Of a DNA stretch of 64,000 nt, positions 15,752 through 46,850 are shown piece by piece; position 1 is the stretch's first letter; the number at the start of each line of letters is the position of its first letter. Made by a program: the position numbers and the translations under genes. The stretch covers positions 13,392 through 77,391 of the forward strand of contig CAZENT010000004.1 of the NCBI GenBank assembly GCA_964513845.1. Reading direction: 5' to 3'. The notes under the pieces were generated by a model. That model was not told the DNA's origin, searched no databases, and saw only the letters and a list, made by a program, of their open reading frames with translations. The stretch comes from an uncultured Pseudomonadales bacterium. Lineage in GTDB: Bacteria > Patescibacteriota > Microgenomatia > UBA1400 > MFAQ01.

Positions 15752-15760
15752 TTGACTAAG

Positions 15761-18212: not shown

Positions 18213-18215
18213 AAT

Positions 18216-24400: not shown

Positions 24401-25582
24401 ATGGAAAAACTTCCCATCGCTGTTGTTGTCATCCCTACTTACAACGAGGCCGAGACGATAGGAGAAATGATCGACACTCTTTGTGCCAAAGTTTTTCCTA
24501 AAATCAAAGACTACCAGTGCAAACTTTTGGTAGTGGACGACACTTCTCCAGACGGCACTTACAAAATTGTTCAAGCCAAGCAGAAAAAATACTCAAATCT
24601 TGAGCTTTATTTGAATCCCACCAAAGCCGGAATCGGCGGAGCGTATGTCAAAGGCTTCAGACATGCCATGTCCGCTCTCAAGGCCGATGTCTTGATCGAA
24701 TTCGATGCAGATTTTCAACATCCACCCAAAGACATTCCGGTTTTACTCAAAGAAATTTCCAATGGTTATGACTATGTTTTAGGATCACGCAAAATTAAAG
24801 GTGGTAGTAATCCCAAAGGCTGGGGTTTCAAACGAGTCTTTTTTAGTGAAGCCGGCGGTATGGTCGCCAGACTAGTTCTTTTCTTCCCTTCCAAAATGTT
24901 CTTCAAGATTACCGACCCTACCACGGGCCTCAAAGCTTCTCGGGTCAAAGGCTTTGTTGATACTATGGACATGGATCATTTGTATTCCAGAAGTTTTGGC
25001 TACAAGCTTGAGTTTCTTTACAAAATGGTTCAGCTTGGAGCCAAGGTCAAAGAAATTCCACTCAAGTTCGGACTTCGCACCAAAGGCGAGTCCAAGATCG
25101 AGCCCAAAACAGCTAAGGATGTATTTCGTTCCGTCTTTCTTCTTAGATGGTCAGATCCTACCACCAAGAAATTTATCAAATTCGGCTGCATCGGTCTTTT
25201 TGGCTTTGTCATCAACAAAGTCGGTTTAGATGTTTTTGCCAAAGGACTCCAAAATTTGATCAATACCGTTGGTGTCAGAAACTTTGTGGCCAATGCTCTC
25301 GCCGCCGAAGTATCTATCATCAGCAACTTTATTCTTAACAATCTTTGGACTTTCAAAAACGAGAAACTTATCTGGGGCAAAAAACTCATTCAAAAATTTG
25401 CCACCTTCAATCTCAGCTCTGTTATTTCCGGCATCATTATTCCTAGTATCATTATCGGAGCCGGTACCCAAATTTTTGGAGATCAATATCGCTTCCTCTT
25501 CCTCGTCATTGCCGTGTTCTTCTTCACTGTTCCCCTCAACTGGTTCATCTACAACCTCATCATCTGGAAGAAAAAGAAATAA
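24401..25582 (+). CDS. Polyprenol-phosphate glycosyltransferase (GT2, DPM1/ArnC/GtrB-like) fused to GtrA-like C-terminal membrane domain
   Basis: N-terminal VVIPTYNE...VVDDTSPDGT...DADFQHPP GT2 signature. C-terminal 4-TM GtrA-like region (KFIKFGCIGLFGFVINKVGLDVF...). Confidence 0.8.
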   Translation: MEKLPIAVVVIPTYNEAETIGEMIDTLCAKVFPKIKDYQCKLLVVDDTSPDGTYKIVQAKQKKYSNLELYLNPTKAGIGGAYVKGFRHAMSALKADVLIEFDADFQHPPKDIPVLLKEISNGYDYVLGSRKIKGGSNPKGWGFKRVFFSEAGGMVARLVLFFPSKMFFKITDPTTGLKASRVKGFVDTMDMDHLYSRSFGYKLEFLYKMVQLGAKVKEIPLKFGLRTKGESKIEPKTAKDVFRSVFLLRWSDPTTKKFIKFGCIGLFGFVINKVGLDVFAKGLQNLINTVGVRNFVANALAAEVSIISNFILNNLWTFKNEKLIWGKKLIQKFATFNLSSVISGIIIPSIIIGAGTQIFGDQYRFLFLVIAVFFFTVPLNWFIYNLIIWKKKK

Positions 25583-27607: not shown

Positions 27608-28324
27608 GTGAGTATGACGAGACAAATAGAAAAATTGTCCGTGTTTTTGCCGGCATACAACGAAGAGGCAAACTTACAACGGACAGTCAAAAACGTAATC
27701 GAAAATCTCCAAAAAAACGTTTCCGAATGGGAAATAGTTATCGTTGATGATGGTTCAAAAGACAAAACCGGTGCCATTGCCGATTTGCTTGCCAAAGAAA
27801 ACAAAAAAATCTCCGTCATTCATCATTCTCCCAACAGAGGTTATGGTGCCGCCTTCAAAAGCGGCCTTTATGGCTGTAAATATCCTTGGATTTCTTTTAT
27901 CGACTCCGACGGCCAGTTCAATTTCAAAGAAATTGGTAGGTTCATCGACACCCAAGAAAAAACCCAAGCCGACATGGTCATTGGTTACTATCTCAAACGA
28001 AAAGTCCCTTTTACTCGCATTCTAAACTCCAAAACCTGGCAGTTCATCGTTTATCTTCTTTTTGGTCTTAACGTTCGCGATATTGACTGTGGTTTCAAAC
28101 TAATCTCCAAAAAAGTAGTTGACACTATTCCCAAGCTCGAAAGCGAAAGGGGAGCCTTTATTAGCTCCGAATTCCTGATCAAAGCCAAAAAAGCCGGTTT
28201 CAAGATTGTCGAGATTGGCGTTCAGCACTATCCTCGCAAATTTGGAGAAGCCACCGGTGCCAAGCTAAACGTTATTGTCCAAAGCTTTATTGACCTGTTT
28301 ACACTTTGGCGAAAAATAAAATAA
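27608..28324 (+). CDS. GT2 glycosyltransferase (polyprenol-phosphate sugar transferase-like)
   Basis: SVFLPAYNEE...IVIVDDGSKDKT...DSDGQF DxD-type GT2 motifs. 238 aa, no TM domain. Confidence 0.8.
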   Translation: MSMTRQIEKLSVFLPAYNEEANLQRTVKNVIENLQKNVSEWEIVIVDDGSKDKTGAIADLLAKENKKISVIHHSPNRGYGAAFKSGLYGCKYPWISFIDSDGQFNFKEIGRFIDTQEKTQADMVIGYYLKRKVPFTRILNSKTWQFIVYLLFGLNVRDIDCGFKLISKKVVDTIPKLESERGAFISSEFLIKAKKAGFKIVEIGVQHYPRKFGEATGAKLNVIVQSFIDLFTLWRKIK

Positions 28325-28328
28325 TGTA

Positions 28329-28364
28329 TTCGTCATCCTTGCGAAAGCGGGGATCTATATAAAA
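28329..28364 (+). repeat. Conserved intergenic hairpin + TATATAAA motif, copy 3 (loop GAAA)
   Basis: TTCGTCATCCTTGCGaaaGCGGGGATCTATATAAAA. ATG of next gene follows immediately at 28365. Confidence 0.6.
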
Positions 28365-29840
28365 ATGTTAAATTTCATCAAAAAAAATAAGCGCGAGTTT
28401 GTTTTTTTACTGGCAATTTTATTGTTGGCTCTCTTTCTTCGGCTGTTCAGAATTGAAGGTTTTATGACCTTCTTGGGTGATGAGGGTCGTGATGTTCGTA
28501 TTGTTCGCGATCTTATTACCGAAGGCAATCTAGTATTTATCGGACCCCAAACCAGTGTAGGCAACATGTATCTCGGCCCCCTCTATTACTACATGATGGC
28601 CCCTCCTCTCTTTCTTTCCGGTCTAAATCCAGTCGGTCCGGCAATCATGATCGCCTTACTAAGTGTACTTACCGTCTGGCTCACCTGGTATGTTGCAAGA
28701 AAATGGTTTGGCAGAGAAGCCGCAATTATTGCCGCTCTTTTATATGCCGTGTCACCCGTTGCCATCATCTATGGCCGAACTTCCTGGAACCCAAACCCTA
28801 TGCCTCTGTTTTCTCTTCTCTGTATCTGGGGAATTTACGAGGTTTGGCAGAACAAAAAATATTATTGGTTGCCATTAATTGGTATTTTTTACGCTTTCGC
28901 CATTCAGATGCACTATCTTGCCCTTCTTCTTTTACCAACTCTTGGCTTGTTTTGGTTTCTCACTTTCCAAAAATTACGAAAAGAAAAATTACCTATCAAT
29001 AGCTTCTATAAAAATTCTTTATTCGCTCTAATTGGATTTCTCTTACTCATGTCTCCTTTGGTTCTTTTTGATATCAAACATCAAGGATTAAATTTCAAAG
29101 CCTTTAGCTCTCTCGTCTCCGCCAAGTCTGGAGTTTTCAATCTTAGTCATCTTCTTTTCAAACCATTTTCCGTTTTATCACTTGTTTTCTCATCTCTTTT
29201 GTTTGGTGACGAAAAACCAAAAGTTTTTCTTTCAATCTTTCTTTGTCTGATTCCCGCTATTTTTCTTGTCAGCAATAGAACACAAAAACACATCAAGCTC
29301 ATCGCCTCTTGGGTACTTTTTACTCTTCTTGGATTAAGTCTATACAATCAGTCAATTTACATCCACTATTTGGGAATAATTTACCCTGCCGTTTTTATGC
29401 TCTCAGGAGCGATCATTTCTCAAATATTAAAAAAAGGATCGTTTCTTAAATATCTATCTCTCGTCTTACTAACAGTAATCGTTGTGAACGATCTAAGACT
29501 TAGTCCCACTTTTGGCAATCCCAATCGTCAGCTCCAGCGTACCGAACAGGTTGCTGATCTCATAATCAAAGAGTCAAAAGGGGAGCCGTTTAACTTAGGG
29601 CTTATCTCCAAACAAAACTACGACGAGTCATATCGCTACTTCCTGGAAAACAAAAAAGCCTCTCTCGAAAAAGATCAAAATAAAATTACGGACCAACTCT
29701 TCGTTATCTGCGAAGATGGAGATGAGTGCAAACCTCAAGGGCACTCTCAGTATCAAATAGCCGTTTTTGGCATTGCCCATATCGATAAAGTGTGGCAAGT
29801 AGGTTACATCAAAATTTATCGACTAATACACACAAAATGA
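28365..29840 (+). CDS. GT-C membrane glycosyltransferase, ArnT/PMT_2-like (subfamily A1)
   Basis: First-loop acidic motif FLGDEGRD, GP.TS.GN..LGPLYYY, GRTSWNPNPMPL block shared with 47912, 54651(-) and 63214 paralogues. 11+ TM. Confidence 0.7.
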   Translation: MLNFIKKNKREFVFLLAILLLALFLRLFRIEGFMTFLGDEGRDVRIVRDLITEGNLVFIGPQTSVGNMYLGPLYYYMMAPPLFLSGLNPVGPAIMIALLSVLTVWLTWYVARKWFGREAAIIAALLYAVSPVAIIYGRTSWNPNPMPLFSLLCIWGIYEVWQNKKYYWLPLIGIFYAFAIQMHYLALLLLPTLGLFWFLTFQKLRKEKLPINSFYKNSLFALIGFLLLMSPLVLFDIKHQGLNFKAFSSLVSAKSGVFNLSHLLFKPFSVLSLVFSSLLFGDEKPKVFLSIFLCLIPAIFLVSNRTQKHIKLIASWVLFTLLGLSLYNQSIYIHYLGIIYPAVFMLSGAIISQILKKGSFLKYLSLVLLTVIVVNDLRLSPTFGNPNRQLQRTEQVADLIIKESKGEPFNLGLISKQNYDESYRYFLENKKASLEKDQNKITDQLFVICEDGDECKPQGHSQYQIAVFGIAHIDKVWQVGYIKIYRLIHTK

Positions 29841-30379: not shown

Positions 30380-31141
30380 ATGTCAGAAATAAAACTATCG
30401 ATTGTCATCCCCAACTTTAACGAAAAAGAAAATCTGGATCGAGGAGTTCTGGAAGAGGTTTACGACTATTTAAAAAAAGTTAAATACGATTATGAAGTCA
30501 TCATTAGCGATGATGGTTCCACTGATGGTAGTCGTGAAATTGCCGAAAAATTTGCTCGTGCCCATCAGGGTTTTAGAGTTTTACCCAATCCTCATGGTGG
30601 TAAAGCCAAGGCTGTTTTTGCCGGGATAAAAGCGGCCAAGGGTGGAATTGTTCTTTTTACCGACATGGATCAGTCAACTCCACTTGTTGAAGTAGAGAAA
30701 CTTCTTCCCTGGTTTGACAAAGGTTATAACGTTGTTTTTGGTTCCCGCGGTAAGGCTAGAGCCAACTTCCCCTGGTACCGCCAGCTAACCTCTTGGGGTT
30801 TTCGTGTAGTTCGTGGCCTTTTTCTTCTTCGCGATGTTATTGATACTCAGTGCGGTTTCAAAGCTTTCAAGCTCGACATTGCCAAAAAGATTTTTCCCTT
30901 ACTCTCAGTTTTGAGAGATCAAAAACAATCCACCGGTTGGTCAGTCTCTGCTTTCGATGTTGAGCTTCTATTCTTGGCTGAAAAATATGGCAGCAAACTC
31001 AAAGAAGTCGATGTAGCTTGGAAAGACGAAGATGTTGCCACCAACAAAGACAAAAGATTTATTAAAGAGTCCTCCGATATGTTGAAGCAGATTCTTAAAG
31101 TCAAGAAAAACGACTTGCAAGGAAAATATGATCAAAAATAA
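30380..31141 (+). CDS. GT2 glycosyltransferase (DPM1-like)
   Basis: LSIVIPNFNE...VIISDDGSTDGS...TDMDQS GT2 motifs. Confidence 0.8.
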   Translation: MSEIKLSIVIPNFNEKENLDRGVLEEVYDYLKKVKYDYEVIISDDGSTDGSREIAEKFARAHQGFRVLPNPHGGKAKAVFAGIKAAKGGIVLFTDMDQSTPLVEVEKLLPWFDKGYNVVFGSRGKARANFPWYRQLTSWGFRVVRGLFLLRDVIDTQCGFKAFKLDIAKKIFPLLSVLRDQKQSTGWSVSAFDVELLFLAEKYGSKLKEVDVAWKDEDVATNKDKRFIKESSDMLKQILKVKKNDLQGKYDQK

Positions 31142-32627
31142 AAAGCTTTGGATAATTATTGTTTCTATTTTGGCGGTCGCCGCCTTCTTTTTCTTTCGTT
31201 TTTCGAAGCTAAATAACATTCCAGTATTTGTTGATGAAGCTATTTATGTCCGCTGGTCTCAAGTCATGAAAGCAGAATCAAGTCTTAGATTTTTACCGCA
31301 AACAGATGGCAAACAGCCTCTTTTTATGTGGACAACCATTCCATTCTTCAAAATTAGCCCCGATCCTTTAGTCGCCGGTCGGCTTGTCTCGGTCGCTTCC
31401 GGGTTCGGTTCGTTTCTTGGTATTGGCTTTTTAGTTTGGCTAATTTTTGGCGATCTCCTTGTTGTTTCTTTATCTATGCTTGTCTACGCTATTCTTCCAT
31501 TTTCGGTATTTTTCGACCGTATGGCCCTCGCCGACTCCATGCTTGCAATGTTTGGCATTTGGTCCCTGGCTTTTTCCATTCTATTTGCCAAAACTCGCAA
31601 GCTCGATCATGCCATGCTTCTTGGTTTTGCAATCGGAGGAGGACTGCTCACCAAATCCCCGGCAATCATTTTCTATGTTTGGCTTGCCCTGTCTCTTCTA
31701 TTTTTTAGTAAGCCCAAAGAATCAAAAATTCACTCGTTTGGAAATCTTATAATTTGTCTTTTTGCCGTTGTCGTTATTTCCCAGATGATGTATGGCATTC
31801 TTCGTCTTGGCCCTGCCTTCAATATGATTGGTGCTCGAAACCAAGACTACCTTTTTACCTGGAAAGAAGTTTTATCTCACCCGTTTAATCCGCTGATTGG
31901 AAATCTCAAAACCACTCTCAACTGGCTCTGGTTGTTGTTTTCACCTACCTTACTTCTTTCACTCGTCTTTGGCTTTATTCCCAAAAAATCTCGAATGTTT
32001 TCCTTATTTTTGATTCTTATTTCACTCATTCCTTTGGTTGCTCAAGCTTCCATAGCCAAGGTATATACCAGTCGTTACATTCTTTTTGCAGTTCTCCCTC
32101 TCATTCCGGTTATCGGGTTCGGCCTAAACTGGTTAGTTACGCGCAAGGGTATACTCATAAAACTATCGTCGATAATTCTCCTAATCATTCCTCTCATTTT
32201 TTCTCTTCTTTGTGTATTTTCTCCTGCCAAAGCGCCACTTTCTTTTGATATGCACAACGGTTATCTCGAAGAATGGACTGCTGGCTGGGGTCAAAAAGAA
32301 ATCGCCAATTATCTCATCGACCAAGAGTCAAAAGGGGAGAGAGTCGTAGCATTTACTGAAGGATATTTTGGCACTTTGCCCGATGGTCTTCAAATCTATA
32401 TCGAAGGACATAAAAATATCACCATCGTCGGTTCCAGTCCCAAAGTAAATAATCTTCCCGATGGATTAGTAAACACTTCACCTGAGAATAAAAGATATTT
32501 AATCATAAACAAATCAAGAAATTTTCTTCAGCCTTCTAGTTTAGAAAAGTTAACGCTAATTAAGGAGTACCCCAAACCGGCAAGACTCGACGGTACCCAA
32601 GAGGTACTACAGTTTTATGAGTTTTAA
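31128..32627 (+). CDS. GT-C membrane glycosyltransferase, ArnT/PMT-like (subfamily A2)
   Basis: N-terminal TM then VFVDEAIY acidic loop motif. 12+ TM segments followed by C-terminal soluble domain. Confidence 0.65.
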   Translation: MIKNKKLWIIIVSILAVAAFFFFRFSKLNNIPVFVDEAIYVRWSQVMKAESSLRFLPQTDGKQPLFMWTTIPFFKISPDPLVAGRLVSVASGFGSFLGIGFLVWLIFGDLLVVSLSMLVYAILPFSVFFDRMALADSMLAMFGIWSLAFSILFAKTRKLDHAMLLGFAIGGGLLTKSPAIIFYVWLALSLLFFSKPKESKIHSFGNLIICLFAVVVISQMMYGILRLGPAFNMIGARNQDYLFTWKEVLSHPFNPLIGNLKTTLNWLWLLFSPTLLLSLVFGFIPKKSRMFSLFLILISLIPLVAQASIAKVYTSRYILFAVLPLIPVIGFGLNWLVTRKGILIKLSSIILLIIPLIFSLLCVFSPAKAPLSFDMHNGYLEEWTAGWGQKEIANYLIDQESKGERVVAFTEGYFGTLPDGLQIYIEGHKNITIVGSSPKVNNLPDGLVNTSPENKRYLIINKSRNFLQPSSLEKLTLIKEYPKPARLDGTQEVLQFYEF

Positions 32628-34344
32628 GCTATCAAGTTTTACATCATCGGTAATCAATCGTTTTGTCATGGTCAAAGGAACTCTGGTGTGGTTGGCTGTC
32701 GTGATTCTTCTTTCACTTCCTACAGTTACATCCCTCTTTAAGCCAGGACTTTTTGCCATGCATGATGATATGCAAGCTATGCGTGTTAGTGAAATGGTCA
32801 AATGTTTCAACGATGGTCAAATTCCCTGTCGCTGGGTTCCCAATATGGGTTATGGTTATGGTTATCCTCAGTTTAATTACTACGGACCCTTGCCATACTA
32901 CGTCATGAGTCTCACCAACCTAATGGGTTTAAACGTTTTTGACTCAGTCAAGTTGGGCTTCATTTTATCTCTCATGCTCGGAAACATTGCCATGTTCTTA
33001 CTGGGAAGCAAACTGTGGGGAAAATGGGGCGGACTATTATCGGCGCTTATTTATGCTTATGCTCCTTATCGGGCTTCAGATCTTTACTCTCGTGGTGCCA
33101 TGGGGGAATCGTGGGCTTTCGTTTTTATCCCGCTAATTATTCTTAGCGCTTATAATTTTGCCAAAGCATATTCTCTAAAAAATTCTGCCACACTCGCCTT
33201 ATTTTTCGGACTTCTGATCTGTACTCACAATATTAGTACGCTAATTTTTACTCCCGCTCTCGTAATTTTATTTTTAGTTTTTCTGTACCAAAATGACAAA
33301 TTAAAAATAAATAAGGACTCATTAATTCAAATATTTAGATTTGGTTTATCCCTTTTGTGGGGAGGATTAATTGCTGGATTCTTTTTTCTGCCTGTGCTTT
33401 TGGAAAAACAATTTGCCCACACCGAAACCATGATAGGGGGCTATTTTGACTATCGTGCCCATTTTGTCACCATTTATCAGTTGTTCACTTCAACTTTCTG
33501 GGGAGTGGGTTCATCTGTTCTTGGTCCTCATGACGATCTTTCTTTTTTCTTTGGTCCGATTATGATTCTTATCACTCTTGCTGCCTTAATCATTACTATC
33601 GTCAGATTTATAAAGAAGCCACAAAAAAACTCAATACTTGTAATTACCCTGTTTGTTCTTGGTCTATTTGCCGCTTTTATGACCCATGAAAAATCCTCAT
33701 TTATTTGGACAATTGTCAAACCCTTAATATATCTTCAATTTCCATGGCGCTTTTTAGTTCTGGGAAATATACTTTTCTCTTTAGTAGCCGGTTCTGTGTT
33801 ACTGGGTCAAAAAACTCATCGTTCTGCGATATTAATCACAGTTGTTTTATCTTTCCTCGTTCTTTTCAATCTTTCTTTTTTTGCTCCATCAAAATGGTTT
33901 GACATTACACCGAAGGAAAAATTTTCCGGTCCAAGTTGGGACAAACAGCTAACCATCAGTATTTACGATTATTTGCCCATATTTGCCTCACATCCACCCA
34001 CTGCACCTGCTCCATATCTTCCCGAGGTATCCCGTGGTCAGGCTGATTTTCTAAATGTAAAAAAGGGCACCGACTGGATTCAATTCAACATCGAAGCCAG
34101 CGAAAATGCGACAGTAAAGCTTCCTCTTCTCTATTTTCCAGGGTGGATAGTCAAAGTTGATAATAAAAAAGTTATCATTGATTATCAAAATGAGCTAGGA
34201 TTAATTACCTTTGATGTTTCTGCTGGTAATCACTTAGTCTATGCTAAGCTCACAAACTCTCCGGTTAGATTTATCGGAAATATTTTAACTTTAATTTTTC
34301 TTCCAATGTCACTTTACTTCATCATCAAATCCAAACATGAATAA
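32617..34344 (+). CDS. Polytopic membrane protein, paralogue 1 of tandem trio (HDD...DGQIPCRW family, putative GT-C glycosyltransferase)
   Basis: Shared N-terminal block MHDDMQAMRVSEMVKCFNDGQIPCRWVPNMGYGYGYPQFNYYGPLPYY with the two downstream paralogues. ~12 TM plus C-terminal beta-rich domain. Confidence 0.6.
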   Translation: MSFKLSSFTSSVINRFVMVKGTLVWLAVVILLSLPTVTSLFKPGLFAMHDDMQAMRVSEMVKCFNDGQIPCRWVPNMGYGYGYPQFNYYGPLPYYVMSLTNLMGLNVFDSVKLGFILSLMLGNIAMFLLGSKLWGKWGGLLSALIYAYAPYRASDLYSRGAMGESWAFVFIPLIILSAYNFAKAYSLKNSATLALFFGLLICTHNISTLIFTPALVILFLVFLYQNDKLKINKDSLIQIFRFGLSLLWGGLIAGFFFLPVLLEKQFAHTETMIGGYFDYRAHFVTIYQLFTSTFWGVGSSVLGPHDDLSFFFGPIMILITLAALIITIVRFIKKPQKNSILVITLFVLGLFAAFMTHEKSSFIWTIVKPLIYLQFPWRFLVLGNILFSLVAGSVLLGQKTHRSAILITVVLSFLVLFNLSFFAPSKWFDITPKEKFSGPSWDKQLTISIYDYLPIFASHPPTAPAPYLPEVSRGQADFLNVKKGTDWIQFNIEASENATVKLPLLYFPGWIVKVDNKKVIIDYQNELGLITFDVSAGNHLVYAKLTNSPVRFIGNILTLIFLPMSLYFIIKSKHE

Positions 34345-36022
34345 AAGGATTCTCGCGATAGTTGGTCTGTTCATTACTTCATTAATTGTGTCGTGGAATC
34401 TTCTAAAACCTGGATTTTATTCCATGCACGACGATCTACATGTCATGCGTCTTTACGAGATGAAACAGTGTATCGGCGATGGTCAAATCCCTTGTCGTTG
34501 GTCAAGTGACTTGGGAGCAGGCTTTGGTCAGCCCATGTTCAACTATTACTCGGCAACCCCATATTATCTTGGCGCCATTTTTAATACTCTTGGTTTTTCT
34601 TACATCGACTCAGTTAAATTACTGATATTCATCTCGATATTTTTAGCCGGGATTGCCATGTTCTTATTTCTCTCCGAGTTTCTCCCGGCTCTTCCTGCCT
34701 TTGTTGGAGCTACGGCATACATCCTGGTTCCCTTTAGAGCTTTAGAAGTATTTGTCAGGGGAGCTTTGGCCGAAAACTTTGCCCTCGCGCTTTTACCATT
34801 AGTTCTTTATGGTATTATCAGGCTCATAAAAAGGCAAGATAAAACCAGTTTCATTTTACTGTCACTTTTTTCCGGATTATTCTTGGCTTCCCACAACATC
34901 ACCTCACTAGTTTCTTCTTTACTCATAGTATCTTTTTCTATTGTCGTCATATTTCAAAATAAAAATAAATTAAAGAGTTCGCTTCTGCTTTTATTGTCTG
35001 CCTTATTAGGTGTTGGAACTGTCGCGTTTTTTCTATTTCCGGTCATCTTCGAAAGAAATCTAATTGATACCAGTTTTCTTACTTCAGGCTATTTCAATTT
35101 TCGCGCTCATTTCGTCACACTCAATCAGCTTTTTATCAATCAAAGTTGGGGATACGGTGCCAGTGAGTTTGGTCCAAACGACAAACTTTCCTTTGCTGTT
35201 GGAATTATCCAATCGCTCGCCTTTATCGCTACACCCTTAATTATATTTTTCAAAAGAAAAACTCTCCAAAGTAATCACAAGATCTTACTTGGCTTGTTTT
35301 GGCTTATGGGAATAATTTATTTATTCTTAACCACCAGCAGATCGGTAGGAATTTGGGAGATAGTTTCCCAATTATCTTTTGTTCAGTTCCCTTGGAGGCT
35401 TTTGGGAGTAGTGGCCATTTCTTCATCAGTAATTATCGGAATAATTGTTGGATCTCTCGGGAACAAGACTCAAAAATCAATTTCAGCAGCTGTCTTTATC
35501 GTTTTATTGCTACTCAACTTTCGATATTTTAAATTCGAAAAAACATTTGATTCGGCTACAGATAGCACCTTTTTGTCAGGTCAAGGTTTCACCAATCAAC
35601 AGCTTTCCGCCATTCTTGATTACAGACCAATATCGATGAAAAGTATTCCGGAAAATATCGCTCCTCTAGAACCCCAAGTTATTTCTGGTCAAGTTGAGGT
35701 CAGTAACTTTCAAAAAAGGTCCAATTATTTCTCCGCCGATGTGTATGTTTTAAGTGGTGAAGGAGAAGTAGTATTTCCAATTTCCGATTTTCCAAACTGG
35801 ACCGTATATCTGAATAACGGTCTTTCAGCCACACAGTATAGAACAAGTGATTATTTTGGAGAGATTACGGTAACTTTTAAAAAGGGTCACAACTTAATTC
35901 AAGGCTATTTTGAGAATACTCCAATCAGATCAATTTCCAACATTGTTTCCTTCATTTCTCTATTATTAGTTTTGCTTATCGTTTTAGTTCCAAATGATAG
36001 AAAAAATACTCAAAAAGCTTAA
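34337..36022 (+). CDS. Polytopic membrane protein, paralogue 2 of tandem trio
   Basis: MHDDLHVMRLYEMKQCIGDGQIPCRWSSDLGAGFGQPMFNYYSATPYY. 8-nt overlap with paralogue 1. Confidence 0.6.
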   Translation: MNKRILAIVGLFITSLIVSWNLLKPGFYSMHDDLHVMRLYEMKQCIGDGQIPCRWSSDLGAGFGQPMFNYYSATPYYLGAIFNTLGFSYIDSVKLLIFISIFLAGIAMFLFLSEFLPALPAFVGATAYILVPFRALEVFVRGALAENFALALLPLVLYGIIRLIKRQDKTSFILLSLFSGLFLASHNITSLVSSLLIVSFSIVVIFQNKNKLKSSLLLLLSALLGVGTVAFFLFPVIFERNLIDTSFLTSGYFNFRAHFVTLNQLFINQSWGYGASEFGPNDKLSFAVGIIQSLAFIATPLIIFFKRKTLQSNHKILLGLFWLMGIIYLFLTTSRSVGIWEIVSQLSFVQFPWRLLGVVAISSSVIIGIIVGSLGNKTQKSISAAVFIVLLLLNFRYFKFEKTFDSATDSTFLSGQGFTNQQLSAILDYRPISMKSIPENIAPLEPQVISGQVEVSNFQKRSNYFSADVYVLSGEGEVVFPISDFPNWTVYLNNGLSATQYRTSDYFGEITVTFKKGHNLIQGYFENTPIRSISNIVSFISLLLVLLIVLVPNDRKNTQKA

Positions 36023-37700
36023 CTATCTTTTACCCCTTTTCCTAATTTTGGCAGTAATTCCGGCTGTATTTAATCTTCTGGCGCCGAAAAGTTTCTCCTT
36101 TCATGATGAGACCCAAATTGCCAATCTTCATCAGTTCATCCAAACCATTAACCTTGGTCAATTTCCTCCTCGTTGGGCCGTTGATATGCATTTTACGTAT
36201 GGTTCTCCGTATCCGGAATTCAATTATCAACTTCCGTACTATATTGGATTTCTCTTTAACAAAATTGGCTTTTCAATCTTTGATTCTTACAGACTTTGTC
36301 TTGCTCTATCTCTATTTGTTGGAGCGGTTGGGATGTATTATTTTGCCAAAAAAAATACTACCCCTTTTGTCTCTTTTGCCGCCGCCATTCTTTATACATA
36401 CACTCCATACAGGGCAGTAGACGTTTTTGTGAGGGGTACAGTAGGGGAGTCTTTTGCTCTCGCCATTTTTCCCTGGATTTTATATAGTCTGGTTAGGCTC
36501 AAAGAAACTCAAAATCTTAAAAATATTTTATTAGTGGCAATATCTGTTACCTCGCTAATTTTGTCACATCAGCCATCTGCTGCTTTTGGTTTACCCATCA
36601 TCATAGGTGCATTCTTCCTAGCGGAATTATTTAAAAAAAATATAAAATTTATTGTGGGGCTGGGTATAAGTCTTGTTTCCTCATTATTGCTCAGCGCCTA
36701 TTATCTTCTTCCGGTATTTTTTGAAAAAGGATTTATCATAGAAGTGCTTCCCTTTAACTTTTATGATCACTTTCCTTTTATCAAACAATTAATCTTCTCA
36801 CCTTGGGGATACGGTGCTTCAAACTGGGGTCCCTACGATGATATGTCGTTTCAGATTGGCATTGTCAATCTAGTTGTTATTGTTGGAGCTATTCTCTTTT
36901 TGTTTCTGAAAACAAAATCCACAAAGAAACCAGAAAAAACTTATCTACTTGCTTTCCTTGTTGCTTTTTTTCTGGTGATTTTTTTGATGAACATCCGATC
37001 ATCTTTTATCTGGAACATCAATCCCTTCACTAATGCTATTCAATTTCCCTGGAGATTGCTTTCCCTAACCACAATCCTCACCGCCACCCTATTTGTTTAT
37101 GCATCCAAATTTATTCCAGGTAAATATCTAAAACTCGTCTCTTTGATTGTTGCTCTTTCAGCCTTCTCGCTCACAATTTCATATTTCCGCCCTGGAGAAA
37201 TCACCAACAACACGGACGATTATTTTCTTAGACGTTATTTACCCAATAAAGTACTGTTAGCTGGAGAACGAGTGTCCAAAGAGTACCTAAACTATACTGA
37301 AAATTATCTTCCCTTACCAATCAACGCGGTCAGGCCTGAGGCTGTTCCTGATACAAAATTTACCTCTGTTCTCTCAGATACTAAGATAATTATTTCTGAA
37401 TCAAACCCGTTTGCCATCAAGGCAAATATAATCGCCCCTGGGGATGAAATTATTACCGTCAACACTTTTTTCTATCCAGGCTGGAACATTGCCATCGATA
37501 ATCAATCGACAGATATTACTCTGGATAAAAATGGTGCCATGATGATATTCGTTCCTAAAGGGACACATAGTCTAGATATTAAGTTCCTCGATACCCCTAT
37601 TCGTCGAATATCCAATATAATTTCTTTAGTCTCTTGGCTAATCGTCATTTATCTTTTAACAAAACAAGCTAAACTTTTTAATCGTGGAAAACGTCGCTGA
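35994..37700 (+). CDS. Polytopic membrane protein, paralogue 3 of tandem trio
   Basis: FHDETQIANLHQFIQTINLGQFPPRWAVDMHFTYGSPYPEFNYQLPYY. 29-nt overlap with paralogue 2. Confidence 0.6.
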   Translation: MIEKILKKLNYLLPLFLILAVIPAVFNLLAPKSFSFHDETQIANLHQFIQTINLGQFPPRWAVDMHFTYGSPYPEFNYQLPYYIGFLFNKIGFSIFDSYRLCLALSLFVGAVGMYYFAKKNTTPFVSFAAAILYTYTPYRAVDVFVRGTVGESFALAIFPWILYSLVRLKETQNLKNILLVAISVTSLILSHQPSAAFGLPIIIGAFFLAELFKKNIKFIVGLGISLVSSLLLSAYYLLPVFFEKGFIIEVLPFNFYDHFPFIKQLIFSPWGYGASNWGPYDDMSFQIGIVNLVVIVGAILFLFLKTKSTKKPEKTYLLAFLVAFFLVIFLMNIRSSFIWNINPFTNAIQFPWRLLSLTTILTATLFVYASKFIPGKYLKLVSLIVALSAFSLTISYFRPGEITNNTDDYFLRRYLPNKVLLAGERVSKEYLNYTENYLPLPINAVRPEAVPDTKFTSVLSDTKIIISESNPFAIKANIIAPGDEIITVNTFFYPGWNIAIDNQSTDITLDKNGAMMIFVPKGTHSLDIKFLDTPIRRISNIISLVSWLIVIYLLTKQAKLFNRGKRR

Positions 37701-39156
37701 ACCTGAAGTCGCCATTGAAATAAACGAAATAAAACGTCGATCCGTTTCTGGTGTGTTGGCCTTAATATCACGAACCTTTATCGTTCAGATAATCTCTTTT
37801 GTTGCAACACTAGCTCTTACCATCTTCCTCGATCCTAATATCTACGGTATCTTCTATCTTGTTTCTTCCGTTGTAAACTTCTTAGCATATTTTTCCGATG
37901 TCGGATTAGCCGCCGCGCTGATTCAAAAAAAAGAAGCTATCACCAAAAAAGATCTTGCCACCACTTTTACCATTCAACAAATCTTGGTCTTTATTCTTCT
38001 CTTGGTTCTATTTTTAGTTAGACCGCTAATCCGTACTCAGTACAACATCGATCAATCTGGTATGTATCTTCTTTACGCCATGGGTGTTTCTCTATTCCTC
38101 AGCTCTCTCAAAACAATTCCTTCCATCATGTTAGAACGGGAAATAAAATTCAACAAACTTATTCTTCCTCAAATTCTCGAAACCTTGGCCTTTAACTTTG
38201 TTGCTGTTTTCTTTGCTTGGAAGGGCTTCGGGGTCACTGCTTTTACCTATGCAGTTTTGGCTAGAGGAGTTGTTGGTTTAGCTACTATGTACATTGTTTA
38301 TCCTTGGAAACCATCACTAGGAATCTACCGAGACTCACTCAGGTCACTTCTTCGCTTTGGTCTCCCATATCAAGCCAATACATTTTTAGCCGTTCTTAAA
38401 GACGATGGTATGACCATCATTCTTACCAAAATTATTGGCACGACAGGACTAGGCTACATCGGTTGGGCCAGTCGCTGGGCAGGGCTTCCTTTGAGGATTG
38501 TCATGGACAATCTCACCAAGGTTTCTTTTCCAACCTTCGCTCGTCTTCAACATGACAAAGAAAGATTGACTAGAGCGGTCGAGGTGAGTCTAAAATATAT
38601 GTGTCTGACTGCTTTCCCAATTCTAGTCGGTATGGGTTTCTTTGCTCTTCCTCTTGTTCAGTTAATTCCCAAATACGCCAAATGGCTTCCGGCCTTGATT
38701 CCTCTCTATATCTATTTGTACAACTCGGCTTGGGCCAGTATTTCTACTAGTCTTACCAATCTTCTCAATGCCACGGGGCATATAAAGACCACCTTTAAGC
38801 TGATGTTGATGTGGACAGGATTAACTTGGCTTTTAATGCCATTTCTATCAATAAAATTTGGATATCTTGGAGTTTCCTACGCCGTGGCCATTATCGCCAC
38901 CTCATCATTCGTCACTATAATTTTAGCCCGAAAGTACGTTCACTTCAATTTATTAAACATTCTCAAAACGCCATTAGCCGCAACTTTTCTCATGGCATCA
39001 TTTCTAACTTTTACTATTCAATATGCTCACTCATTTACTAGTCTAATAGTCATCGGTTTATCGTCTGCCATAATCTATTTTGGCACAATTATTCTTATCG
39101 AAGGCAAATCATTTTTCAAAGAAACGCTTAATTACTTCAGATTGAAACATGTTTAA
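37684..39156 (+). CDS. Oligosaccharide flippase (Wzx / MOP-superfamily polysaccharide biosynthesis protein)
   Basis: ~14 TM. Polysacc_synt-like N-terminal block (ISRTFIVQIISFVATLALTIFLDPNIYGIF...SDVGLAAALIQ). GTG start at 37684 assumed. Confidence 0.6.
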   Translation: MENVAEPEVAIEINEIKRRSVSGVLALISRTFIVQIISFVATLALTIFLDPNIYGIFYLVSSVVNFLAYFSDVGLAAALIQKKEAITKKDLATTFTIQQILVFILLLVLFLVRPLIRTQYNIDQSGMYLLYAMGVSLFLSSLKTIPSIMLEREIKFNKLILPQILETLAFNFVAVFFAWKGFGVTAFTYAVLARGVVGLATMYIVYPWKPSLGIYRDSLRSLLRFGLPYQANTFLAVLKDDGMTIILTKIIGTTGLGYIGWASRWAGLPLRIVMDNLTKVSFPTFARLQHDKERLTRAVEVSLKYMCLTAFPILVGMGFFALPLVQLIPKYAKWLPALIPLYIYLYNSAWASISTSLTNLLNATGHIKTTFKLMLMWTGLTWLLMPFLSIKFGYLGVSYAVAIIATSSFVTIILARKYVHFNLLNILKTPLAATFLMASFLTFTIQYAHSFTSLIVIGLSSAIIYFGTIILIEGKSFFKETLNYFRLKHV

Positions 39157-42100
39157 AAAACTTCTTTACTCTCTATTTATTCTTATATTTTTTCTAATTC
39201 CTGGAAAGTCATTCGCTTTTAACTACGATACCTTCATTACTATTACTAGTCCAGTAAGAGGTTTGGAAAACTGGAACAATATTCTTCAAGATCCATTGGA
39301 TATTCCCATCTTCCTTTATGAAGAATCATCCATGTCTGGTCTTCCCTCAAACTGGCTTTTTCGTTATGATGCTGTGGAAGACGCGAGTATTTCAGCTTTT
39401 TTCAAAAACATAATTCGATCCGACAAACAAGTTTCGCTTGGTGGTTTGTTGGAAATTACTCCGAGTCTTACTCAAAAAGCGGGCGTCAGATACCCAAACG
39501 GGAACACCAACAGAAATTTTCTATCCGGTTATAGTCAGACAGATAGAAAAATTTTGATTGATGAATTCATGGGGACTTTCAAAAAGCGCTTTGGATTTTA
39601 TCCAAAGTCAGTTGGAGCGGGGTACATCGATAGCTATTCTTTAGAATATCTTCAATCAAAGTATTCTGTGACAGTTGCTATGATCAGCGACGATCAGTTC
39701 CAAAAAGACGCTGTTCGTGTTTGGGGTGGATATTTAGGAAGCCCTTATTTCCCGGACAAAAACAACTCTCTTGTCCCTGCTCAGAGTTTACAGAATCGAG
39801 TAAATATTTCCATCGTACGCTGGAATCAAAAAGATTTATTTAATTTCATCAGCTCTGGTGGACAGTCAGGTTACTCGGTTCAGCCAAATGAATATCTAAT
39901 TATGGGGCTAAAAACAAATTATTTTAACAATTTACTCTCACAATATAGTCAAAAAGATTTTAATAAATTTACTTATCTCAATATCGGTTTAGAAAACACC
40001 CAGGAATTAAAAGACTATCGTCAAGAAATAAAAAATATCTTTGCTCTCCTAAAGTTAAATGAAAAAAATTATCGTTTAAATATTACCAGTCTCGAAACCT
40101 TTGGTGATTGGATGCGATCTATGTATCCGGAAAGCAGCCCTGTCTATTTTTATCGATCAACTGATCCATTAGGAAAACAATCAGGAGAGTCCTTTTGGTA
40201 TCAATCTCCCTTTTATCGAATAGGGCTAAAAACTGTCGATGGTCAAACAAAAATCATCGATTTTCGAGTTTACAATCGAGAAATCTATGAAGACAATTTT
40301 GTAATTCAAAATCAAAATTACACCGTCATTCAAGATATTCCTGCTTTGATAGATACAGTCAAATTCCCCGGCACCGAAATAATTCTTAATACTGATTTAG
40401 AAAAATACAAAACAGTCTACTCGGACAAAGACGAAATTTGGAAAATTACCCTTCAAGACGGTGATAAGAAAATAGTTTTTTATCCAGACTCAATTAAGTT
40501 TTCCGGGTTTATAGTTCCAGAAATTAATTTTGCTGACTTAAAAGTCACTCAATCAAATCACAATACAGATTGGAAAATAAATCCCCAAACTCCTTTCAAA
40601 GACACTCATGCTTTTTCTTGGATATTTTGGATAACTTTATTTTCTATCATCGTTTTCATCATCAAAAAATATCGCCAGCAAAAGCCATTAAAATTTTCTC
40701 CACCAATTATTGTTGGATTGTTATGTCTCATCCTAATCAGTCTGACTGTTATAAAAAGTGGCTTGGTTTTTCCTTTTGGTCTTGGTTTATGGGGACCAAA
40801 TGGTCATGATGCTGTTTTCCATTTATCACTAATTGAAAAGTTCGCTCAGAATCCTTTTAATCTAAATCATCCCCAATATGCCGGTGCAAAGCTCACCAAT
40901 TATCACTTTGTTTTTGACTATTTATCAGGAATATTAGTTAGAATTTTTGGAATCTCATCTGTCACCTTATTCTTTCGTTTTGTCCCCATTTTACTAGGTC
41001 TAATTTTGCTCCACCTTCTAAACAAACTCATGGACAAGTGGAAATACTCTTCATGGGAAAAATCAGTTTCTTATGTTTTAGTTTTTCTTGGTGGCTCTTT
41101 GGGTTTTATCCCCAAACTAATCACGGGTCAAGATGTTTTTTCAGGAGAGTCTGCTTTTTGGGTCAATCAATCAGCCTCTCTCTTTCTTAATCCACCGTTC
41201 GCTCTTTCTCTTGTATTTTTACTGATATTTTTACTGAACATTCCCAATGAAGACAAAATAAAACTTCGCTCTCTTCTAAAATTGATATTCTTCGGTGCCC
41301 TACTTTCTCAGACAAAAATTTATGCTTTTGTCTTGCTCGCCGCGGCTTTATTCTTTAGTCGCAAAGTAAAAATTCTCTCTGGAGTAGTTTTCTTGGGTGC
41401 CCTCTTCACCCTTCCGTTCTCCTCGTTTTCCGGATCACCCTTTGTTTTTGATCCGCTCTGGTTCAGTCGCAGTTTATTCGCCTCATATGATCGATTTTAC
41501 TGGGCACGTCTTTCTGGAGCCTGGCAGTCATATGAAGCTGTTGGCAACTTCCCCAAACTTATTGCAGTCAACATTTTTGCCACAGTAGTCTTTTTGATCG
41601 GCAATTTAGGAGTAAGAATTATTGGTCTTGTAGATCTGTTCAAAAATAATTCAAATGATATTTCCCAAAAGCTAGTCAAATGGATAATTATTGTCGGTCT
41701 GCTTTTACCCTTGCTCATCGTTCAGAAAATAAATCCTTGGAACACAATTCAATTTTCATATTATTCAATCTTCTTTTTGGGAATAATTTCTGGTCCTGTT
41801 ATTTTACGTCTCATAAAATCGATTAAATTAGCAGTATTAAGGTATTTCGTTATTATTTTTCTAATCTTTTTGGGTACGGCTACTAGTGTGGGAACCCTAA
41901 GAGACTACACCGGTTTTCTATCTGCTTCTGCAGTAGGTTTCAGTGAAATTGTCGGTCTTCAAACTCTAAGAGATCATCCCAAAGGCGTTGTCGTCTCTCC
42001 GCTTTTTATTCGCTCAAATACAGATGCCTCACCCAAGCCACTTTATAACTATGTCTCAACTGCATATATTTCCGCCTTTTCCGGGCAGCCAGAATTTCTG

Positions 42101-42331
42101 TCAGATACTATCAATCTCGACATTACTGGTTTTGATTATCAAACACGATCCAAACAGGTTCAACGTTTTTACAATACTCAAGACAAAAGCTGGGCACAGA
42201 GATTTTTGAAAGACAATGACATAAGATATATATACGAGACACCCATTCAATCTATCAAAATTAGCCCTTCTGATTTATCGCTAACAATAATCTATAACTC
42301 AGGTGGATTTAAAATCTACAAAACATACTAA
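39149..42331 (+). CDS. Large (1060 aa) membrane protein: N-terminal ~480-aa extracytoplasmic domain fused to multi-TM domain of the GHDxxxHLSL family
   Basis: Signal peptide, soluble domain of unknown fold, then TM domain with GLWGPNGHDAVFHLSLIEKF...KLTNYHFVFDYL block shared with 45213 and 56249 proteins. Confidence 0.6.
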   Translation: MFKKLLYSLFILIFFLIPGKSFAFNYDTFITITSPVRGLENWNNILQDPLDIPIFLYEESSMSGLPSNWLFRYDAVEDASISAFFKNIIRSDKQVSLGGLLEITPSLTQKAGVRYPNGNTNRNFLSGYSQTDRKILIDEFMGTFKKRFGFYPKSVGAGYIDSYSLEYLQSKYSVTVAMISDDQFQKDAVRVWGGYLGSPYFPDKNNSLVPAQSLQNRVNISIVRWNQKDLFNFISSGGQSGYSVQPNEYLIMGLKTNYFNNLLSQYSQKDFNKFTYLNIGLENTQELKDYRQEIKNIFALLKLNEKNYRLNITSLETFGDWMRSMYPESSPVYFYRSTDPLGKQSGESFWYQSPFYRIGLKTVDGQTKIIDFRVYNREIYEDNFVIQNQNYTVIQDIPALIDTVKFPGTEIILNTDLEKYKTVYSDKDEIWKITLQDGDKKIVFYPDSIKFSGFIVPEINFADLKVTQSNHNTDWKINPQTPFKDTHAFSWIFWITLFSIIVFIIKKYRQQKPLKFSPPIIVGLLCLILISLTVIKSGLVFPFGLGLWGPNGHDAVFHLSLIEKFAQNPFNLNHPQYAGAKLTNYHFVFDYLSGILVRIFGISSVTLFFRFVPILLGLILLHLLNKLMDKWKYSSWEKSVSYVLVFLGGSLGFIPKLITGQDVFSGESAFWVNQSASLFLNPPFALSLVFLLIFLLNIPNEDKIKLRSLLKLIFFGALLSQTKIYAFVLLAAALFFSRKVKILSGVVFLGALFTLPFSSFSGSPFVFDPLWFSRSLFASYDRFYWARLSGAWQSYEAVGNFPKLIAVNIFATVVFLIGNLGVRIIGLVDLFKNNSNDISQKLVKWIIIVGLLLPLLIVQKINPWNTIQFSYYSIFFLGIISGPVILRLIKSIKLAVLRYFVIIFLIFLGTATSVGTLRDYTGFLSASAVGFSEIVGLQTLRDHPKGVVVSPLFIRSNTDASPKPLYNYVSTAYISAFSGQPEFLSDTINLDITGFDYQTRSKQVQRFYNTQDKSWAQRFLKDNDIRYIYETPIQSIKISPSDLSLTIIYNSGGFKIYKTY

Positions 42332-42332
42332 T

Positions 42333-43250
42333 ATGTCCAAAATAAATATCTCAGCAGTTGTCAACACTAGAAACGAAGAAAAAAATATTGAAGACTGTCT
42401 TCGGTCTTTAGAGTTTGCAGATGAAATCATCGTCGTTGATATGGAGTCGACAGATGACACGAAGCAAATCGCCAAAAAATACACCGACAAAGTTTTTGAT
42501 ACAAAAATGGTTGGCTATGTTGAGCCAGCCAGAAACTTTGCCATCAGTAAAGCTGTTGGCGACTGGGTTTTGATTGTTGATGCTGATGAGCGTATTCCCA
42601 AAACTCTTGCCAAGAAGCTCATCGAGATCACCGAAGGCCAGGATGTTGATTTTGTGAGAATCCCCAGAAAAAATCTAATTTTTGGTCAATGGACTCAGCA
42701 CTCCCGTTGGTGGCCGGACTTCAACATCCGCTTTTTTAAAAAGGATGCCGTCGAGTGGCAAAACGAAATCCACTCCATTCCGGTGACAACAGGTATTGGA
42801 ATCAATCTCGATACTGAAGAGTCCCTTGCCATCGAACATCACCACTACAACAATGTTGATGAATACTTCGAACGAGCTCTTCGCTACTCATCTCAGCAAG
42901 CCAAAGAGCTAATAAATTCCGGATACAAATTCGACGCCAAAGACTTCATCGTTAAACCCATTAGTGAATTCATAAGTCGATTCTTCGCCGGCGAAGGATA
43001 CAAAGATGGTCTTCATGGATTGATTCTGGCCTTCCTTCAAATGTTTTCCGTCATGCTTATTTATCTGAAAGTCTGGCAAGCAGAAGGTCAAGAGCCCAAA
43101 AAAGCCGGCTTCTTTACCCCCATCTGGCAAAAGCTTTTCCTTGAGAAGTTCAAAGAACTTCGTTACTGGTATCTCACCGTGCTCATCCAAAGCCAACCCT
43201 CCAAAACCAAGCGCTTTCTCCTAAAGCTCACCCGCAAGCTAAGTAAATAA
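42333..43250 (+). CDS. GT2 glycosyltransferase
   Basis: ISAVVNTRNEE...IIVVDMESTDDT...VDADE GT2 motifs. Start at 42333 directly after stop of previous gene. Confidence 0.75.
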   Translation: MSKINISAVVNTRNEEKNIEDCLRSLEFADEIIVVDMESTDDTKQIAKKYTDKVFDTKMVGYVEPARNFAISKAVGDWVLIVDADERIPKTLAKKLIEITEGQDVDFVRIPRKNLIFGQWTQHSRWWPDFNIRFFKKDAVEWQNEIHSIPVTTGIGINLDTEESLAIEHHHYNNVDEYFERALRYSSQQAKELINSGYKFDAKDFIVKPISEFISRFFAGEGYKDGLHGLILAFLQMFSVMLIYLKVWQAEGQEPKKAGFFTPIWQKLFLEKFKELRYWYLTVLIQSQPSKTKRFLLKLTRKLSK

Positions 43251-43498
43251 TATTTTTCTAAAAACCATAAAACCATCCATTTCGAACGAGTTGCTTCGCA
43301 TGCGCGTCGTAGGATTCTTTCGAATTCTTATAAAAAGTGGCGAGATAGGCACGCTTGACGACTGCCTAGATTGAGACCACATAATATGAGAAAGAAGACT
43401 ACAGCGACCGATGCATTAGTGAGAAATGTGGTGGTGAGTGGTTTAGGGAAATATTATTTATCTGATAAGTCAGCTTTGATATACACTATAATTAATCA

Positions 43499-44410
43499 AT
43501 GAAACTAGGCTTTATCTCCGTCAGCTTTCACAGCACAGAAGACACTCTGAATGTCGTAAAACAGCTTGAAAAAAACGCCCTTCCTTTGGCAGTAACTTCT
43601 ACAGTTTACGTTGTCGACAACAGCCGATCCTCAGAGCTCAAAGAAAAGCTCGCCAAACACCCCCAAGCAGTTTATATCGAGAGTCCAGGAAACATCGGCT
43701 TTGCCGCCGGCAACAACTTAGGCTTAAAAAGAGCCATAGATGATGGAGTTGATATTGTTGTCATGATAAACAACGATACTATTGTTCCCGAAGATCTTAT
43801 CCTCAATATTCTTGCTTCTCCCATAGTCGAAAAATCCACCGGTGCCGTAGGCGGCCTAATTTATTTTGCCAAGGGTTTTGAGTTTGAAGATAAATACAAA
43901 AAAGAAGATTTAGGGAAAGTCGTTTGGTATGCAGGCGGGGAGTATGACTGGAACAATGTTTACGCCTCCCATATCGGTGTAAACGAAGTAGATCAGGGTC
44001 AGTTCGATGATGTTCGTGAAACAGATTTTATTACTGGCTGTTTATTTATCACCAAAGCTGAAGTGCTTAAGAAGGTTGGTTTGTTTGACGAGCGTTACTG
44101 TTTATATTTCGAAGACTCCAATCTCGGTATGAGAATCAAAAAGGCCGGCTATAAGCTAATCTTTGATCCCAATATCAAGTTGTGGCACAAGGTTGCTCAG
44201 AGTTCCGGTATTGGTTCTCCACTTAATGACTATTTCCTAACCAGAAATCGTTTACTTTTCGGTATGGACTACGCCAAAACCAGAACAAAGCTAGCACTCT
44301 TAAGAGAAGCCATTAAAAAATTATTTATTGGTACCAAAGCCCAGAAGCAAGCCGTACGTGACTTTTTTACTCGTAATCTGGGTGGCGGATCTTGGATAAA
44401 AAAACCATGA
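43499..44410 (+). CDS. GT2 glycosyltransferase (rhamnosyltransferase/WbbL-like)
   Basis: VYVVDNSRSS...GNIGFAAGNN...NNDT and YFEDSNL blocks typical of GT2 rhamnosyl/galactosyl transferases. Confidence 0.7.
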   Translation: MKLGFISVSFHSTEDTLNVVKQLEKNALPLAVTSTVYVVDNSRSSELKEKLAKHPQAVYIESPGNIGFAAGNNLGLKRAIDDGVDIVVMINNDTIVPEDLILNILASPIVEKSTGAVGGLIYFAKGFEFEDKYKKEDLGKVVWYAGGEYDWNNVYASHIGVNEVDQGQFDDVRETDFITGCLFITKAEVLKKVGLFDERYCLYFEDSNLGMRIKKAGYKLIFDPNIKLWHKVAQSSGIGSPLNDYFLTRNRLLFGMDYAKTRTKLALLREAIKKLFIGTKAQKQAVRDFFTRNLGGGSWIKKP

Positions 44411-46820: not shown

Positions 46821-46850
46821 ACTGCATAATTAGAATAGAATAGTAACTAC

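Follow-up and report, generated by a model that had tools for sequence, protein, structure and literature searches.

Three anciently diverged GT-C-fold paralogues of the PF10131 family in a glycan gene cluster of a Microgenomatia bacterium

Introduction

For the wall polymers of Gram-positive bacteria a scheme has been described that combines a GT-A glycosyltransferase, a flippase (GtrA or Wzx) and a GT-C glycosyltransferase, and it includes the Wzx-using GacI/J/K/L system (PMC8035078). GT-C enzymes of this kind include YfhO (PF09586), which adds N-acetylglucosamine to the lipoteichoic acid of B. subtilis and S. aureus or to the wall teichoic acid of L. monocytogenes, and the ArnT/PMT_2-type enzymes (PF13231; GT83/GT39-like), among them GacL, GtlB and CsdD of Gram-positive cell-wall decoration. 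In the GT136 pentofuranose systems, a GT-C with a C-terminal carbohydrate-binding module is found together with a polyprenyl-phosphate-sugar synthase and a flippase of the MOP/MATE type (PMC11127046). The PF10131 (PTPS_related) family also belongs to the GT-C clan, CL0111, as a member of unknown function (PMC7801869). Here we describe three consecutive PF10131 genes, A, B and C, in a 64,000-nucleotide stretch of DNA, hereafter the window (GenBank assembly GCA_964513845.1, contig CAZENT010000004.1, positions 13,392 to 77,391), which was deposited as an uncultured Pseudomonadales bacterium and has the GTDB lineage Patescibacteriota; Microgenomatia.

Bacteria of the candidate phyla radiation (CPR), including the Microgenomates, have not been cultivated, and they rely on contact between their cell surface and their hosts. 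A, B and C encode paralogues that diverged long ago within a single family of GT-C class A fold, PF10131. We consider it fairly probable, with some reservation, that they are enzymes that move polyprenyl-phosphate-linked sugars onto a cell-surface glycopolymer at the outer face of the membrane.

Results

Three overlapping genes with full-length homology

The preliminary description of this DNA reported three plus-strand open reading frames (ORFs) of 561-575 amino acids (aa) that overlap by 8 and 29 nt, and both the ORF list and direct reading of the junctions agreed with it. The A/B overlap, CATGAATAA, contains the ATG of B at 34337 and the TAA of A at 34342-34344; in the B/C overlap, the ATG of C lies at 35994 and the TAA of B at 36020-36022. 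The frame changes at each step from A to B to C. There are also overlaps of 11 nt between the upstream PMT_2 gene and the start of A and of 17 nt between the end of C and the downstream flippase gene.

Pairwise BLASTP aligned A with B at 35% identity over 530 aa (E 1e-92), A with C at 30% over 563 aa (E 3e-61) and B with C at 29% over 542 aa (E 9e-70). The three proteins are homologous along their full length, far above chance. It had been thought that the similarity extended over a conserved N-terminal block, but since it spans the whole proteins at 29-35% identity, this block is merely their best-conserved part. The motifs ascribed to the block were shared in part: an HDD is present in A and B and an HDE in C, but only A and B have an exact DGQIPCRW, its counterpart in C being LGQFPPRW, and FNYY..PYY reads FNYQLPYY in C. 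A family profile search of the whole window found no further copy.

Family assignment and fold

In a Pfam search all three products scored above the PF10131 gathering threshold of 26.4 bits (scores in Table 1), which bore out an earlier, tentative guess at a PTPS-related family. Of the 621 profile positions, only those from 1 to about 300-340 were matched by A, B and C; the C-terminal helices and the β-sandwich domain of this Microgenomates subgroup lie beyond the match. With respect to PMT_2 (PF13231, threshold 26.1 bits), C was above the cutoff at 33.2 bits, A was below it at 17.3 bits and B had no match. The same search gave no match in A, B or C to PF09586 (YfhO) at E≤0.1, and no NCBIfam family was found for any of them.

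A word-indexed search returned 374 homologues, and those with names came from Collierbacteria, Daviesbacteria, Microgenomates or Patescibacteria; judged from its homologues, the window would derive from a Collierbacteria-like member of the Microgenomates. Nearly all carried a precomputed PF10131 match and some a precomputed PF09586 match. In an exhaustive search of 50%-identity clusters, the family profile matched 20,213 cluster representatives at E≤1e-3, of which 7,518 reached E≤1e-30. Among families with an assigned function, YfhO was the nearest by profile comparison (hhalign, 99.5% probability, E 9e-23, 522 aligned columns that include the C-terminal part).

The AlphaFold2 (AF2) model of B had a predicted local distance difference test score (pLDDT) of 94. 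When it was used as a Foldseek query, all 22 matches at E<1e-3 were GT-C enzymes, including the heteromeric Pmt1-Pmt2 (6p2r) and EmbA-EmbB (7bvf), and the model showed the superposable multi-pass membrane fold that characterises GT-C class A.

These comparisons bear on the type of acceptor. A, B and C might instead be protein glycosyltransferases, either O-mannosyltransferases like PMT or oligosaccharyltransferases like STT3/PglB that use a Wzx-flipped lipid-linked glycan, with surface proteins such as pilins, S-layer proteins or sortase-anchored adhesins as targets in place of a polysaccharide. The PMT_2 score of C is in keeping with this, as are the Wzx-type flippase gene directly after C, whose resemblances to MOP flippase and "O-glycosylation flippase" models were below cutoff, and a sortase and a 1983-aa adhesin-like protein encoded 17-24 kb upstream. 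However, the strings WWD and WW are absent from A, B and C, so that none has a WWD(YG) motif; the Pfam search found no match in them to PF02516 (STT3/PglB/AglB), PF02366 (PMT) or a MIR domain; and the model has no β-trefoil insertion, its C-terminal domain being a small β-sandwich and not a periplasmic domain of the STT3/PglB type. The nearest family by profile, YfhO, is a decorator of teichoic acid, and AftD scored as high as STT3B in the fold comparison, so that types of acceptor cannot be told apart by the fold. We regard protein glycosylation as possible but rather unlikely.

Age and copy number of the triplet

Eighty-three related loci were fetched and their family members counted; 45 of these loci had at least 4 kb on both sides. 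A neighbour-joining tree was built from 160 full-length family members, with bootstrap values that refer to strict monophyly. The number of tandem copies at this position varied from 1 to 4: 19 of the 45 loci had one copy, seven had two, 15 had three and four had four. In the tree A, B and C fell into separate clades, represented in 40, 42 and 33 loci (bootstrap 0.77, 0.83 and 0.89, respectively), each with exactly one member per locus; Collier-, Davies- and Woesebacteria were all represented. The tree also contained a clade of fourth copies and a "single-copy" clade. The A-B-C order and the 1:1:1 presence were kept in at least 33 loci.

Because orthologue clades with one member per locus extend across three lineages, the triplication is old, not recent; judged from this tree, the triplet arose before Collier-, Davies- and Woesebacteria separated, and it has persisted stably. 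The preliminary description had spoken of tandem amplification, and as a recent or lineage-specific event this did not survive the comparison. Such an event, serving gene dosage or rapid antigenic variation, would match the tandem head-to-tail layout with its overlaps and the variable copy number among relatives, and also two Collierbacteria loci that have a single copy of a different type between flanks 58-82% identical to those of the window. Against it, the paralogues are just 29-35% identical, each of them groups with Davies- and Woesebacteria orthologues and not with its own neighbours, and the 160-member tree showed no recent duplicates within any single locus. The orthologue clades refute this reading, which we consider extremely unlikely.

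In the two Collierbacteria loci (L047 and L065), the flanking genes are 58-82% identical to those of the window (PMT_2b 58-77%, Wzx 74-82%), and one PF10131 gene of the single-copy type, 38-39% identical to A, is present instead of the triplet. Since a single gene of a different type stands between like neighbours, the position behaves as a variable slot, and cassette replacement at the triplet position is suggested.

Between the paralogues, the extracytoplasmic loops (EL) EL1, EL4 and EL5 were most alike (34-51% identity) and the C-terminal domain least alike (18-28%), yet this domain was conserved within each clade. Members of clade C have no Cys53, a feature specific to this clade, and carry N333 in place of the histidine of A and B. 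Similar outer loops with a divergent C-terminal domain fit a common chemistry and donor site combined with differing acceptor recognition, and this pattern suggests different acceptors for A, B and C. Sub-functionalisation, which had been proposed earlier, is plausible on these grounds: the clades have long been kept, the conserved residues are retained and the divergence is concentrated in the C-terminal outer domain.

Predicted topology and putative active site

The model of B comprised 12 membrane helices and a β-sandwich (residues 400-528, approximately) that precedes the final helix (529-550). Each paralogue is accordingly predicted to have 12 transmembrane (TM) helices, both termini inside and an extracytoplasmic β-sandwich before the last helix. 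Clusters of lysine and arginine in B were located at the N-terminus, in short loops at about 167, 208, 306 and 373, and at the C-terminus, a placement that supports the N-in/C-in topology. The first helix (TM1) of B spans residues 3-23, and the HDD motif lies just ahead of a helix at 35-47, with D32-D33 located 9-10 residues past TM1.

Family positions are numbered as in B, and conservation was determined over the 160 full-length homologues. Twenty-seven positions were conserved in at least 95% of them. These included R54, D32 (97%), and R141, G142, E146, H186, E239 and Q350-F-P-W-R354 (97-100%). The invariant polar residues were all on loops that the model and the positive-inside rule put outside, a sidedness that is itself predicted.

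GT-C enzymes carry an acidic motif (DxD, DD or DE) shortly after TM1, in the first extracytoplasmic loop, and their general pattern consists of an acidic pair in EL1, an arginine and an acid in EL2, and an arginine followed by a proline in a late loop (PMC6801728). A, B and C fit this pattern, with an acidic pair in EL1, R141 and E146 in EL2 and a late-loop arginine before a proline. When the 160 family members were aligned with 49 PMT_2 orthologues (hhalign, 98.3% probability, E 2e-14), M-H-D32-D33 of B was placed on L-G-D-E. The preliminary description had located the HDD block where GT-Cs carry their catalytic acids, and this alignment and the predicted position on the outer face after TM1 upheld it. 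A single-sequence hhalign comparison had put the D-E of PMT_2b on GDGQ at 5% probability; this register was dropped in favour of the deep alignment and is further discounted because D47 is not conserved in the family.

Conservation and homology would place the active site at the outer face of the membrane, made up of D32-D/E33 (loop 1), R141 and E146 (loop 2), H186 (loop 3), E239 (the long loop 4) and Q-F-P-W-R354 (loop 5). All 27 conserved positions were retained in A, B and C, the only changes being D33 to E and K94 to R in C. Since every family-conserved residue is kept, all three paralogues are probably active. It could be argued that at least one copy is a catalytically dead GT-C-fold protein or a non-transferase, like PIG-U/GAB1 in the glycosylphosphatidylinositol transamidase, and the absence of the EL1 cysteine from C and its N333 could be read in this way. 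However, the retained residues include D32, R54, R141, E146, H186, E239 and QFPWR, and the internal conservation of clade C equals that of clades A and B. The pseudo-enzyme reading was rejected on residue conservation and is, in our view, very unlikely.

Fused chains and the question of a complex

Two chains with two full PF10131 copies each were found (P0241, 1093 aa; P0242, 1116 aa), together with a chain in which a copy is joined to a PMT_2-type GT-C (P0283). Among these and two further chains of the representative library (P0257 and P0249), some have two or more full PF10131-type copies and one is the PMT_2-type fusion, and smooth linkers run from the last helix to the next TM1. All these chains could be real fusions or frameshift artefacts.

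These chains are relevant to the proposal that the three paralogues work together as an obligate hetero-oligomeric GT-C machine, in the manner of EmbA-EmbB or Pmt1-Pmt2, and not as three separate enzymes; such a machine might be a processive extracytoplasmic polymerase. The gene overlaps suggest coupled translation, the conserved order and 1:1:1 presence would suit a fixed complex, the N-in/C-in topology permits head-to-tail fusion as in the joined chains, and the two heteromeric enzymes are among the fold matches. Many loci, however, have one copy only (19 of the 45 that were fully flanked) and others have two; such frequent single-copy loci imply that the fold works without partners, and some of the fused chains could be frameshift or assembly errors of metagenome contigs. 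An obligate complex is therefore given low, though not negligible, credence.

The surrounding glycan gene cluster

The triplet lies within a gene order that was kept across Microgenomates. Its 5' part consists of GT2-GtrA, a PMT-like gene (minus strand), GT2, PMT_2, (oligoribonuclease), GT2 and PMT_2, and its 3' part of one to four PF10131 genes, a Wzx-type flippase, a 1060-aa protein, three GT2, GT4, and PMT_2 or YfhO. The corresponding features of the window are listed in Table 1.

Table 1. Coordinates of the PF10131 genes, their putative acidic motifs and associated features in the window
Feature	Positions	Strand	Basis
RmlA-, RmlB- and RmlD-like genes (dTDP-rhamnose pathway), a few kb upstream of the island	17472..20107	+	NTP_transferase, GDP_Man_Dehyd/Epimerase, RmlD_sub_bind
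GT2 + GtrA/DPMS-TM fusion, candidate polyprenyl-phosphate-sugar synthase; first gene of the conserved cluster	24401..25582	+	Pfam; position conserved
GT2a (27608-28324) and PMT_2 GT-C (28365-29840), GT-A/GT-C pair	27608..29840	+	Pfam, NCBIfam, synteny
GT2b (30380-31141) and PMT_2 GT-C (31128-32627), GT-A/GT-C pair directly upstream of A	30380..32627	+	Pfam, NCBIfam, synteny
Paralogue A, PF10131 GT-C-fold membrane protein, clade A, 575 aa	32617..34344	+	PF10131 32.2 bits; ORF list
H49-D50-D51 of A, putative catalytic acidic motif, first outer loop	32761..32769	+	Motif search
Paralogue B, PF10131 GT-C-fold membrane protein, clade B, 561 aa; copy modelled	34337..36022	+	PF10131 53.7 bits
H31-D32-D33 of B, putative catalytic acidic motif, first outer loop	34427..34435	+	hhalign to PMT_2 LGDE; model
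Paralogue C, PF10131 and PMT_2 matches, clade C, 568 aa; lacks EL1 Cys53, has N333	35994..37700	+	PF10131 39.4 bits, PMT_2 33.2 bits
H37-D38-E39 of C, same putative motif, second acid D to E	36102..36110	+	Motif search
Wzx/MOP-type flippase	37684..39156	+	Polysacc_synt_3 175 bits
1060-aa fusion, outer deacetylase/GH57-like domain and GT-C membrane domain	39149..42331	+	
Three GT2 genes, 535-aa paralogue of the membrane half of the 1060-aa protein, and GT4; cytoplasmic Leloir part	42303..47915	+	
YfhO of the window, 781 aa	49470..51815		ORF

The best NCBIfam resemblances of the GT2-GtrA fusion were to PgfS, ArnC, AglJ and PpgS, all below cutoff, and the small GT2s of the cluster most resembled ArnC, Dol-P-hexose transferase, AglJ and PpgS. 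In several Woesebacteria loci an extra GT2 of this sort stands directly before the PF10131 block. Altogether about 15 GT-C-type genes occupy about 37 kb (26472-63213), interleaved with eight GT2 genes and one GT4 gene, a density that is an unusual investment for a CPR bacterium with a probably small genome. None of the genes of the window was identified as a teichoic acid gene, and counts of promoters and terminators between 27 and 47 kb were the same as in shuffled sequence and are uninformative on operon boundaries. GT2d (43499-44410) matched a rhamnosyltransferase model weakly; this match and the rmlABD-like genes upstream hint at a rhamnose-containing polymer as the product of the cluster.

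Several other features of the island were recorded. A second tandem GT-C triplet, with products of about 550 aa each, lies on the plus strand at 58230-59891, 59915-61567 and 61564-63213; it is of the PMT_2 type, with 30-33% mutual identity and no family-level relation to PF10131, and its middle gene has no Pfam match. An oligoribonuclease gene (29792-30376, plus strand; NF003765, 233 bits) lies among the glycosyltransferase genes and overlaps the upstream PMT_2 gene; its position is conserved in the closest relative (L001), where it appears as RNase_T. A DUF3800 protein gene (25620-26300, plus strand) and a DUF3800-V RNA (26315-26410, minus strand; RF02964, 74.7 bits) are inserted between the GT2-GtrA and PMT-like genes, and no DUF3800 gene was called there in the same relative.

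Further upstream, a cyclic di-GMP-II riboswitch (8712-8795, plus strand; RF01786, 65 bits) was found 33 nt before an ORF (8828-14779) for a 1983-aa surface protein with SpaA, SdrD-B and DUF4215 domains, followed by an unannotated 323-aa ORF and a sortase gene (15752-16324). In this CPR genome a giant adhesin thus seems to be under cyclic di-GMP control.

Discussion

On the transfer of sugars to a cell-surface glycopolymer, the reading that we favour, the neighbouring ArnC/DPM1-like GT2s would make the polyprenyl-phosphate-sugar donor, and a flippase of the GtrA or Wzx type would carry it across the membrane. By analogy with described systems, a polyprenyl-phosphate sugar is the expected donor. 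A, B and C would each take the sugar from polyprenyl phosphate and transfer it to the growing polymer, using shared catalytic and donor-binding loops and differing in their C-terminal outer domain. Because this domain differs among them, the acceptor positions or structures are probably different, and the three would probably perform successive, non-redundant steps. The overlapping genes are probably co-translated, and the PF10131 block would constitute a variable slot of one to four copies in an otherwise conserved Microgenomates glycan cluster.

Several points weigh against this proposal. The equivalence of the motifs to solved GT-C active sites depends on a profile alignment and a predicted topology, and the YfhO profile alignments placed the acidic motif ambiguously between two comparisons. 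Searches for a solved structure by sequence, with profiles built from 3 and 46 sequences, gave no meaningful match. In the literature searched, including searches that combined CPR, Microgenomates or Patescibacteria with GT-C, no PF10131 member with a demonstrated activity was found, the family being mentioned only in its listing as a GT-C clan member (PMC7801869). The GT2 neighbours matched polyprenyl-phosphate-sugar synthase models only below curated cutoffs, and no initiating phosphoglycosyltransferase was found in the window. Finally, the acceptor could equally be a protein or a lipid.

A bolder version of the proposal can also be put forward, in which the A-B-C triplet would form the centre of an assembly line for glycans that is hetero-oligomeric and extracytoplasmic. 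With about 12 other GT-Cs of the 37-kb island, among which the deacetylase-GT-C fusion and the second tandem triplet are counted, the triplet would assemble a complex wall polysaccharide or a lipoglycan, for the most part outside the membrane. This would be a strategy in the style of mycobacteria, independently evolved in CPR bacteria with tiny genomes, and the slot of one to four copies would be a serotype-determining variable cassette. We regard this as speculation and as unlikely.

A, B and C add a new lineage to the known range of this enzyme class and of its pathway logic and do not overturn current understanding. PF10131 is a very large family for which no characterised member or solved structure was found, and the model, the list of putative active-site residues and the conserved gene context provide a starting point for studies of its function. 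With about 15 GT-C genes in 37 kb, and in a genome of probably around 1 Mb, the island suggests that CPR/Microgenomates bacteria invest heavily in GT-C-based assembly of surface glycans, and the variable-copy slot may underlie surface glycan diversity.

Compared with described systems, the resemblance of A, B and C to STT3/PglB is at the level of the fold only. Sequence identity to the mycobacterial AftA-D and EmbA/B/C proteins is about 10%, and, unlike Emb and AftD, the paralogues have no large carbohydrate-binding C-terminal domains and no AcpM context. They differ from ArnT/PMT_2-type enzymes in that A and B fall below the PMT_2 threshold and all three have distinct motifs (GQIPCRW, QFPWR) and an extra C-terminal β-sandwich followed by a terminal membrane helix. 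The likeness to the GT136 systems is confined to the three-component concept and does not imply carbohydrate binding by the β-sandwich. CPR bacteria are not known to make the teichoic acids that YfhO decorates. The YfhO of the window is about 220 aa longer than A, B and C, but they resemble YfhO in the logic of a GT-A enzyme, a flippase and a GT-C enzyme (PMC8035078).

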